Assembly (NCBI GenBank): GCA_016794505.1
Contig: JAEUJZ010000183.1
Location: 1 to 17,696, forward strand
DNA length: 17,696 nt
Origin: Myxococcales bacterium
Lineage (GTDB): Bacteria; Myxococcota_A; Polyangia; Palsa-1104; JAEUJZ01
Direction: 5' to 3'
Part shown: piece after piece, positions 3,560 through 7,706 of the stretch
Numbering within the stretch: the stretch's first letter is position 1
Layout of the letters: every line of letters starts with the position of its first letter
The notes under the pieces: generated by a model
Seen by the model: the letters and a program-made list of their open reading frames with translations, nothing else
The model's database searches: none
What the model was told of the DNA's origin: nothing
Translations under genes and position numbers: made by a program

Positions 3560-3592
3560 AGTACGCTTCAGTGTGCTGAATGGCGATTCAGC
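3556..3592. terminator. Two short GC-poor hairpins in the convergent gap between rlmL-like and pbpC, possibly a bidirectional terminator
   Basis: ctgaag-tacg-cttcag at 3556-3571 (6-bp stem) and gctgaat-ggcg-attcagc at 3575-3592 (7-bp stem), lying between the stop codons at 3557-3559 and 3588-3590. There are no flanking U-tracts. Confidence 0.3.
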
Positions 3593-6149: not shown

Positions 6150-7706
6150 CTAGCGCGCTTGGTAGACGCTGAGCGTGCCGACGTAGGCGTAGCCGCCGAA
6201 GAACAGAAGCAGGAACGGCAGCGACAGATAGTGACCGTTGAACAGCGCCAGCACCAGCGCGACGGCGAAGTAGATCGCGCACAGCACTTCAATCGCCGGC
6301 ACCAGCGTCTTGGCCGCGCGGTACTTCTTGCCGGTCCACTTTTCCAGGCGCGCTTGCACACCGTGCTTCGGGGTGCGCACGAACTCGCCGGACTCATTGC
6401 TGAACAGCGCTTCCAGCACGGCACGCGACTGATTGATGCACAGGCCAATGCCGAGCGACATCATCAGAGGCAGGCTCTTGATCACGCGCCACCAGCTTCG
6501 CGGGGCGATCTCGCGCTGGCTGGTGATATAGAACGCGCACACCGACAGCGTCGTACCAAAGAACAGCGGCAGGTCGATGAGCAGCACTTCACGCAGACCG
6601 TGGGTAGTGCGCACGAGCAGGTTCGGCAGCAGAAGCAGCGACAGCAGGAACAGCAGCGGATAGGCAAAGTTGTTGGTCAGGTGGAAGAAGGCTTCCAGCT
6701 TCACACCGAAGGGAACATTCGAGCGCAGGATGGTCGGAAGCAGCTTCTTGGCAACCTGGATCGATCCCTTGGCCCAGCGGAACTGCTGGCTCTTGAAGCT
6801 GTTCATCTCGACGGGAAGCTCGGCGGGCGAGACAACGTCGGGCAGGTACACGAACTGCCAGCCGCGAAGCTGGGCACGGTACGAAAGATCCATGTCTTCT
6901 GTCAGCGTGTCGTGCTGCCAGCCGCCTGCATCGTGAATCGCTGAGCGACGCCAGATGCCGGCCGTGCCATTGAAGTTGAAGAAGCGGCCCGAGCGGTGAC
7001 GCGCGGTGTGCTCGATCACGAAGTGACCGTCGAGAAGCAGGGCTTGAAGCTCGGTCAAGCGCGAGTAGTCGCGGTTCAGGTGTTCCCAGCGCACCTGCAC
7101 CATGCCGACTTTGGGATCCGAAAAGAAGTGAATCGTGCGCTCTAGGACATCGGGCTCGGGCAGGAAGTCGGCGTCGAAGACCAGGACGAATTCGCCCTTG
7201 GCGGTCTTCAGGCCGTTTTCCAGCGCGCCGGCCTTAAAGCCCGTGCGATCCGTGCGGTGGATGTAACGGATGTCGAGCCCGGTCTCGCGTAGCTCGGCGA
7301 CCTTCTTCTTGCACAGCTCTTGCGTTTCATCGGTGCTGTCGTCGAGAACCTGGATTTCAAAGCGATCGCGGGGATAGCGGATGCGCGACACCGCGTCGAG
7401 CAGGCGCGGCGCAACGTACATCTCGTTGAACAGCGGAAGCTGCACCGTGACCTTGGGAAGCTCAGGCAGACGCCCCAGCGGCTCGGGCCGGCGGTCGCGA
7501 TAGCGGAAGTACAGGTACACCAGCGTCGAGCGGTGGAAGCCATACACAGCCAGTGCGATAAACACCAGCAGGTAGGCCCCGATGAGCAGCTTGTCATACG
7601 AGGCAAGCCAGCTCACGACGTAGGTGTTCCCGAAGGACTGAAGGGACTGCCAAACGGACTGCAACGTGGTCTGCAAAGTAGACATGGGAGTCGTTCCTGT
7701 GAACAC
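6150..7706 (-). CDS. Processive family-2 glycosyltransferase, cellulose-synthase-like CslA/CslC type (bacterial relatives include MGlcDG synthase)
   Basis: 518 aa. An N-terminal TM helix is followed by a GT-A domain carrying the processive D, D, D, QxxRW signature: DDSTDET, VFDADF, TEDMDLSYRAQLRGWQFVYL and QQFRWAKG (cf plant CSLA TEDMDL...QQHRWS). The C-terminal half is multi-TM. The start is either GTG 7706 or ATG 7685, the latter with AGGAA upstream. The stop lies only 12 nt before the pbpC start. Confidence 0.85.
   Translation of the reverse strand: MFTGTTPMSTLQTTLQSVWQSLQSFGNTYVVSWLASYDKLLIGAYLLVFIALAVYGFHRSTLVYLYFRYRDRRPEPLGRLPELPKVTVQLPLFNEMYVAPRLLDAVSRIRYPRDRFEIQVLDDSTDETQELCKKKVAELRETGLDIRYIHRTDRTGFKAGALENGLKTAKGEFVLVFDADFLPEPDVLERTIHFFSDPKVGMVQVRWEHLNRDYSRLTELQALLLDGHFVIEHTARHRSGRFFNFNGTAGIWRRSAIHDAGGWQHDTLTEDMDLSYRAQLRGWQFVYLPDVVSPAELPVEMNSFKSQQFRWAKGSIQVAKKLLPTILRSNVPFGVKLEAFFHLTNNFAYPLLFLLSLLLLPNLLVRTTHGLREVLLIDLPLFFGTTLSVCAFYITSQREIAPRSWWRVIKSLPLMMSLGIGLCINQSRAVLEALFSNESGEFVRTPKHGVQARLEKWTGKKYRAAKTLVPAIEVLCAIYFAVALVLALFNGHYLSLPFLLLFFGGYAYVGTLSVYQAR

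Follow-up and report, generated by a model that had tools for sequence, protein, structure and literature searches.

The DNA analysed, hereafter the window, comprises the whole of contig JAEUJZ010000183.1, positions 1 to 17,696 of the forward strand (assembly GCA_016794505.1) from a Myxococcales bacterium (GTDB: Myxococcota_A; Polyangia; Palsa-1104; JAEUJZ01). On its minus strand two genes follow one another closely (open reading frame (ORF) list): the first encodes a family-2 glycosyltransferase (GT2), the next, pbpC, codes for penicillin-binding protein 1C (PBP1C). An rlmL-like methyltransferase gene convergent with pbpC ends 28 nucleotides (nt) downstream of it, and ~175 nt of intergenic DNA of lower GC lie upstream of GT2. 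The GC fraction at the pair is 0.62-0.65, the same as in the remaining contig; a compositional anomaly pointing to recent transfer of the pair was sought and none was found. An earlier note, made from the letters of the window, had described both ORFs and their adjacency on one strand as they were found here, and had proposed that they form a coupled unit. Coordinates are collected in Table 1, where loci from other genomes carry L numbers.

Table 1. Positions of the features discussed (aa, amino acids; empty cells, no value given).
Feature	Sequence	Positions	Strand	Remarks
GT2 gene	window	6150-7685	-	511 aa; alternative GTG start 7706 (ORF 6150-7706)
pbpC	window	3588-6089	-	833 aa; longest ORF starts at 6137 (ORF 3588-6137)
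GT2-pbpC spacer	window	6090-6149	-	60 nt by the homology-supported pbpC start
Presumed promoter/operator element	window	7737..7766	-	upstream of GT2; conserved, AT-rich
Two 7-bp hairpins	window	3555..3592	-	cover the pbpC stop and the 28 nt that separate it from the convergent rlmL-like gene
Element copy	L001	9915-9937		
Element copy	L004	9893-9915		
Element copy	L086	1279-1301		
Element copy	L092	77-99		further copies in other loci
TPR-like convergent protein	L001	14090-17356	-	
TPR-like convergent protein	L164	10487-13732	-	
TPR-like convergent protein	L166	11484-14531	-	
TPR-like convergent protein	L167	10376-13132	-	
TPR-like convergent protein	L175	5911-7923	-	
Alpha-2-macroglobulin gene	L173	2092-7995		directly upstream of pbpC
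Alpha-2-macroglobulin gene	L174	1952-7897		directly upstream of pbpC
Alpha-2-macroglobulin gene	L166	18125-18448		strand opposite to pbpC; runs past the locus
ftsE-ftsX-M23-S41-GT2-NTP_transferase cluster	L104	1641-8600		
MlaE-family permease genes (two, tandem)	window	7882-8684, 8685-9479	-	
Major vault protein homologue	window	1-2019	-	673-aa N-terminal part; runs off the left contig end
PNP oxidase, longest ORF	window	9520-10545	-	341 aa
Metallophosphoesterase, longest ORF	window	10277-11350	+	

The product of pbpC scored 751.9 bits against NCBIfam TIGR02073 (cut-off 494.2), which places it in the PBP1C equivalog; NCBI has the same protein (100% identity) under the name 'penicillin-binding protein 1C [Myxococcales bacterium]'. 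It has an N-terminal membrane anchor together with GT51 transglycosylase, transpeptidase and BiPBP_C domains (Pfam Transgly 156 bits, Transpeptidase 71 bits, and BiPBP_C, PF06832, 41 bits against a cut-off of 26.8, residues 747-840). The window protein was aligned with seven relatives (alignment A3), and the motifs ED..F, GGSTI.MQ, STLK (SxxK), SRN (SxN) and KTG were unchanged throughout. Invariant positions were E92/D93/F96, G123-G124-S125-T126-I127, M129-Q130 and K146...E157 in the GT51 domain, and S385-T-L-K388, S439-R-N441 and K559-T-G561 in the transpeptidase domain. Compared in the same alignment with PbpCs encoded next to alpha-2-macroglobulin (A2M), the window protein has no special domain, only three short insertions. 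Judged by these domains and motifs, it is a bona fide, intact PBP1C.

The GT2 protein has multiple transmembrane (TM) segments and matched Pfam Glyco_tranf_2_3 (1.3e-27), as well as Glyco_trans_2_3, Glycos_transf_2 and Glyco_transf_21. No NCBIfam equivalog was reached at cut-off, the top model being CelA (129 bits against 699). The segments VLDDSTDE, FDADF, TEDMDL and QQFRW align to ILDDGGRE, FDCDH, TEDAHT and QRIRW of E. coli BcsA, that is, to the D, DxD, TED and QxxRW motifs. Both gene identities given in the earlier note were thus right. BcsA and the minimal cellulose-synthase-like mannosyltransferase PcManGT (PDB 4p00, 9b8v, 6yv7) were the top solved-structure matches by sequence (E 6e-24, 2e-20), although their identity to GT2 is just 20-22%. 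An AlphaFold2 (AF2) model (pLDDT 76.9) was searched against the PDB with Foldseek, and BcsA again came first (E 2e-18, TM-score 0.61), followed by PcManGT (TM-score 0.78 on target). Helices after QQFRW were modelled at residues 326-359, 364-393, 398-428, 446-482 and 486-510, with a low-confidence loop at 433-457 that includes FVRTPK. This loop stands before the last two TM helices and may be akin to the FxVTxK gating loop of BcsA and cellulose synthases. Unlike BcsA, the window GT2 lacks a PilZ domain as well as BcsB/BcsC partners. Export subunits (BcsB/BcsC, PgaA/B and similar) were found neither in the window nor among the genes that recur around GT2 in 163 orthologue loci, and Pfam and related scans of the window gave no nearby polysaccharide export or attachment genes. 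By alignment and predicted fold, GT2 is an inner-membrane glycosyltransferase of the cellulose-synthase-like (CslA/BcsA) type.

The gap of 12 nt reported in the earlier note holds for the longest pbpC ORF (TTG 6137) and not for the start backed by alignment with relatives, TTG 6089, which has AAGGGA in front of it and leaves the spacer given in Table 1. The NCBI call, an 804-aa protein starting at 6002 (147-nt spacer), would truncate the membrane anchor. For GT2 the start is most likely ATG 7685, with AGGA 8 nt upstream. A promoter or terminator separating the genes, which the earlier note had set against its own proposal, was not found at the junction in a consensus scan of the window; the scan used a sigma-70 consensus, by which myxobacterial promoters are poorly captured. 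Its two terminator-like matches both lie inside pbpC and are fewer than in shuffled sequence. The predicted RNA fold at the junction is no more stable than that of shuffled sequence (z = +1.12). Downstream of pbpC, two hairpins fold at -38.5 kcal/mol (z = -2.41; 5 of 200 shuffles equally stable). The consensus scan was silent on them because no U-tract follows. The transcription unit probably ends here, with the hairpins as a presumptive terminator. Given their close spacing, and with no terminator in between, GT2 and pbpC are probably transcribed together.

Upstream of GT2 lies a short conserved element. In the window it reads GAATTAC-G-AAAAATTACATTTTG followed by GTGACAA, an AT-rich direct repeat amid GC-rich DNA, and it occurs once where no match was expected; about 50-80 nt separate it from the GT2 ATG. 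Its general form, 30 nt long and placed ~50-110 nt before the GT2 start, is (G/A)AATTAC-N-A(A/C)AAATTACAT(T/G)TTG followed by GTGACAA. In a five-way alignment of pbpC-linked loci the element is invariant, whereas the remaining intergenic DNA diverges. Copies with at most three mismatches were found upstream of GT2 in ~18 relatives (68-95% identical), with pbpC present or not. It probably serves the GT2 unit as promoter or operator. Since it is kept whether or not pbpC follows, it would be the regulatory region of GT2 itself, and pbpC would have been appended to an existing unit.

GT2 followed by pbpC, in the same order and on the same strand, was found in L001, L164/L165, L166, L167/L168 and L175. 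Counting the window, the pair is present in at least six independent assemblies, and the other loci come from different samples and assemblers. In L001 and L164/L165 the proteins are 94-95% (GT2) and 83-85% (PbpC) identical to those of the window and the gap is 22 nt; L175 has a PbpC of 71% and a gap of 24 nt. GT2 is 84% and PbpC 70% identical in both L167/L168 and L166, where the gaps are -1 nt (a TAATG overlap) and 161 nt, respectively. Identities of the two proteins drop in step over the relatives (95/85, 84/70, 84/70), in keeping with a block that is inherited whole. In a comparison of the window with L001, nucleotide homology takes in exactly 3590-7833: pbpC, GT2 and the ~130-150 nt that precede the GT2 start. 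It ends just upstream of the element. No flanking protein is common to the window and L001 on either side. The flanking genes of the window were also sought beside GT2 in the relatives and none was shared, only an MlaE gene, at a distance, in Terriglobales. Homology that covers the pair and its upstream region, between unshared flanks, makes GT2-pbpC the sole conserved adjacency in a scrambled neighbourhood. The pair has been kept as a block, most likely as an operon. The adjacency is therefore not unique to this genome, the coincidence against which the earlier note had proposed a synteny check: it persists with PbpC down to 70% and with otherwise different flanks. In every linked relative whose downstream sequence was tested, a protein of ~920-1090 aa with faint TPR matches is encoded convergent with pbpC. 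These proteins are 38-47% identical between sublineages; the window has none, and its rlmL-like gene stands in that place.

Outside this clade the pairing was absent from the loci sampled. A profile scan of GTDB species representatives gave, among the matches listed, 80 GT2 orthologue loci (53-84% identical) from Myxococcota, Acidobacteriota, Verrucomicrobiota, Planctomycetota and one cyanobacterium, and a metagenome scan gave 80 further loci (57-82% identical). Within the fetched flanks, PbpC stood beside GT2 in none of the 80 species-representative loci and none of the 80 metagenome loci. The lone penicillin-binding protein near GT2 among these 160 loci is a class-A enzyme in L013, 26% identical and 2.5 kb off. 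Closer by, the sister lineages L004, L084-L086, L088 and L089 (80-84% identical) keep GT2 and the upstream element and have no pbpC. In a neighbour-joining tree of GT2, linked and unlinked lineages are interleaved within a clade of at least 80% identity. Most simply, the two genes would have come together once, in an ancestor, and the pairing would later have been lost in the L004/L084/L085/L088/L089 group as well as in L086.

Elsewhere pbpC has other partners. PbpC homologues at 60-65% identity are preceded by an AMP-binding enzyme or by a 436-441-aa protein of no assigned name. Those at 56-57%, in L173 (a metagenome-assembled genome of Polyangia) and L174, have the canonical order A2M-pbpC with gaps of 5-103 nt. 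The A2Ms directly upstream of pbpC in these two loci are very long (1967-1981 aa). The A2M-pbpC operon is the documented norm (PMC4498604, PMC3735191). Compared with the yfhM(A2M)-pbpC operon of E. coli and many other Gram-negatives, the downstream gene is here too a TIGR02073-type PBP1C (GT51, transpeptidase and BiPBP_C domains, intact motifs), and in both cases pbpC is promoter-distal in a short operon. The upstream partner differs, being a cytoplasmic-membrane GT2 here and a periplasmic lipoprotein protease inhibitor there. ORF and Pfam scans found no A2M or MG-domain ORF anywhere in the 17.7-kb contig. A 2008-aa A2M is encoded in L166, 7.7 kb from pbpC and on the other strand, and heads a convergent gene string, A2M-Lnb_N-multihaem-like-TPR, that ends against pbpC. 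With no A2M gene upstream of pbpC in the window's clade and A2M-pbpC in distant relatives, the wording of the earlier note, a GT2 'instead of' A2M, is apt: as read from gene order, the upstream partner of pbpC is changed in this clade.

The GT2 family itself is widespread. At least 598 relatives were counted, from 600 pattern matches listed, and members 53-95% identical occur over Myxococcota, Acidobacteriota, Verrucomicrobiota and some cyanobacteria. In many Polyangia-type loci gltX lies upstream of GT2, and in Vicinamibacteria-type Acidobacteriota citrate synthase lies downstream. Orthologues that are 59-62% identical stand at clusters of cell-wall genes: ~35 soil loci and L014 have a same-strand ftsE-ftsX-M23 peptidase-S41 peptidase-GT2-NTP_transferase cluster (for example L104, L107, L110, L111, L117, L118, L121 and L146), and in the Myxococcaceae loci L020 and L041 ftsE-ftsX-M23-S41 lies upstream of GT2, the downstream NTP_transferase not being found. 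The S41 gene that abuts GT2 in L020 belongs to the long MXAN_5808 type; a literature search on the M. xanthus neighbours of MXAN_5808 found nothing. In L089 (81% identical) an S41 peptidase gene lies directly downstream of GT2, and in L004 (84% identical) that place is taken by a 247-aa sugar-1-phosphate nucleotidyltransferase. The 342-aa NTP_transferase is nearest to UTP-glucose-1-phosphate uridylyltransferase (PDB) and mannose-1-phosphate guanylyltransferase (NCBIfam). Such neighbours suggest a nucleoside diphosphate (NDP)-hexose donor for GT2, and the cell-wall neighbours hint at an envelope-related role in Myxococcota.

What GT2 makes was weighed between a lipid and a glycan. In the libraries and papers searched, no characterised bacterial member was linked to the family. 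A protein of Acaryochloris thomasi, 58% identical over its full length, is auto-named 'Beta-monoglucosyldiacylglycerol synthase', and a sibling of it, 66% identical to GT2, is auto-named 'Glucomannan 4-beta-mannosyltransferase', so that cyanobacterial members of the family bear automatic names of both kinds. The reference for the first name, Sll1377 (MgdA), is an integral-membrane GT2 making a monoglucosyl lipid (PMC3916417) and carries D,D,D35QxxRW (bioRxiv 10.1101/414151). This motif set in a non-processive lipid glucosyltransferase means that the motifs of the window GT2 are no proof of processivity. By description, MgdA (479 aa, against 511 aa for the window GT2) and plant CslA/CslC are alike in being integral-membrane GT2s with D,D,D35QxxRW and TM helices that flank the catalytic domain. 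A non-processive lipid glycosyltransferase of the MgdA type (a beta-monoglucosyl-diacylglycerol synthase or similar), in an operon pairing a membrane-lipid with a cell-wall enzyme, is a serious possibility, if somewhat short of an even chance. Besides the Acaryochloris match and the shared architecture, it is favoured by strong conservation across phyla, by housekeeping contexts and by the lack of BcsB-, OPX- or PCP-like partners, all of which speak for a lipid or periplasmic product. Set against it are the automatic nature of the enzyme name and the different name of the sibling; the confinement of the family to few cyanobacterial lineages, whereas MgdA homologues are highly conserved among cyanobacteria (PMC3916417); and the peptides of Sll1377 deduced from published cloning primers, which matched none of 360 retrieved proteins and could be aligned by eye only tentatively, at the C-terminus. 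NCBIfam has no MgdA model, and RcMGlcD of Roseiflexus, tried as an MgdA reference, is a GT28 enzyme and was set aside as irrelevant. The BcsA-like helices of the model, with two TM helices after the flexible FVRTPK loop, would favour a polymer.

Taken together, the two-gene GT2-pbpC unit is, as we think fairly probable, the outcome of an operon rearrangement that placed pbpC behind a conserved GT2 promoter in one clade of myxobacteria. The unit would be confined to a single family-level clade among uncultured myxobacteria of the Polyangia type, and pairing limited to so small a group argues for a local operon rearrangement and not for a new cell-wall glycan system. An ancestral A2M-pbpC operon, still present in more distant Polyangia, would have been broken in the window's clade; pbpC would then have come to lie behind a housekeeping-type GT2 promoter, and the pair would since have been inherited as a block. 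Transcription would start at the conserved element upstream of GT2, read through the terminator-free spacer into pbpC and end at the hairpins before the convergent rlmL-like gene. GT2 is predicted to be an inverting enzyme with a cytosolic GT-A domain carrying the aligned motifs and, in the model, about seven TM and interface helices like the BcsA core. Most likely it would use an NDP-hexose (UDP-Glc or GDP-Man) and form a beta-linked product at the membrane, either a glycolipid as MgdA does or a short beta-glycan passed through its own channel as in CslA/BcsA. PbpC, as a class-A penicillin-binding protein, would polymerise lipid II in the periplasm. What links the two would be co-expression arising from genome rearrangement. 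Because the GT2 family does without PbpC in almost all its carriers, no obligatory biochemical coupling is implied; and since all 160 other loci and the sister lineages lack pbpC, and PbpCs outside the clade are found elsewhere, neither protein needs the other.

The rearrangement reading has to face several points. Co-transcription was deduced from spacing and a missing terminator, and the 161-nt spacer of L166 could hold a promoter of its own. That at least three sublineages have kept the pair amid scrambled synteny could reflect selection for a functional link, beyond operon inertia. The occurrence of the GT2 family beside ftsEX, M23 and S41 genes in other Myxococcota hints at a role in the envelope or peptidoglycan, in which case its pairing with pbpC would be less accidental. 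Some of these points lead to a true functional module, in which a beta-glycan or glycolipid made by GT2 would act with a dedicated PBP1C, as a peptidoglycan-associated layer or as a primer or modifier of PbpC strands. Its case is that the pair is the only adjacency kept among the window, L001/L164, L166/L167 and L175, that neither gene order nor strand changes, and that the gaps are short, in one case a TAATG overlap; moreover, GT2 orthologues standing last or next to last in ftsE-ftsX-M23-S41 clusters, and beside the S41 gene of L089, place the family repeatedly next to periplasmic cell-wall enzymes. We nevertheless hold such a module to be unlikely: every instance traces to one ancestral event in one clade, the sister lineages and all 160 other orthologue loci do without pbpC, citrate synthase or gltX stands beside GT2 in Acidobacteriota and in many Polyangia, PbpC has nothing special in its domains, and genes for polysaccharide export or attachment are missing nearby. 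The dedicated coupled unit making a peptidoglycan-anchored glycan, as proposed in the earlier note, found no support in these comparisons, in which PbpCs outside the clade follow unrelated genes.

At the other extreme, the genes might be adjacent and not co-transcribed, with pbpC driven by its own promoter, sited within the 3' end of GT2 or the spacer, and a neighbourhood devoid of regulatory meaning. The uncertain pbpC start (6137, 6089 or 6002, hence a spacer of 12, 60 or 147 nt), the long L166 spacer and the poor capture of myxobacterial promoters by the sigma-70 scan leave room for this. Little credence is given to it, as no terminator-like structure follows the GT2 stop, the spacers in L167, L001/L164 and L175 are only -1, 22 and 24 nt, and the homology block shared with L001 begins upstream of GT2 and not of pbpC. 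A broader conjecture, which we regard as speculative and very doubtful, is that the GT2 family makes a periplasm-facing beta-glycan or glycolipid with a part in the growth or remodelling of the cell wall of Myxococcota, PbpC being its partner in the window's clade in place of A2M. It would explain why the family stands by pbpC, by the S41 gene of L089 and by ftsE-ftsX-M23-S41 in Myxococcaceae and in the soil lineage. The CslA-GlxA tip glycan of Streptomyces offers a concept shared with the window GT2, a glycan made by a cellulose-synthase-like GT2 and laid down where new peptidoglycan is made; CslA belongs to another GT2 subfamily, and its partner is a copper oxidase, not a penicillin-binding protein.

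Other features of the window were recorded. Two tandem MlaE-family permease genes lie just upstream of the GT2 unit (Pfam MlaE 2e-56 and 3e-66), and a Pfam scan found no MlaD/Mce or MlaF gene in the contig. An MlaE gene also lies ~1.5-5.5 kb downstream of the GT2 orthologue in several Terriglobales loci. At the left end of the contig, the major vault protein homologue matched Pfam Vault_3 (2.3e-8), MVP_shoulder (3.9e-6) and Vault_4 (1.2e-4); to our knowledge, such homologues are uncommon in bacteria. The longest ORFs of a PNP oxidase and a metallophosphoesterase overlap by ~270 nt on opposite strands. Pfam domains of the oxidase begin only at residue ~167, and its true start is probably well downstream of the longest-ORF start. 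Rfam and tRNA scans of the window gave no matches.

If the pair is merely a rearranged operon, its import is small: the linkage of pbpC with A2M, regarded as typical for Gram-negatives, would be labile in Myxococcota, and pbpC could be carried by another promoter. A by-product of the analysis is a CslA/BcsA-like GT2 family, more than 50% identical across several soil phyla, with its own conserved and presumably regulatory element. In Myxococcota the family stands repeatedly beside cell-wall enzymes and an enzyme forming sugar nucleotides. To know what it makes, a glycolipid or a beta-glycan, would close a gap in envelope biology and would bear on the bacterial roots of plant CslA/CslC.

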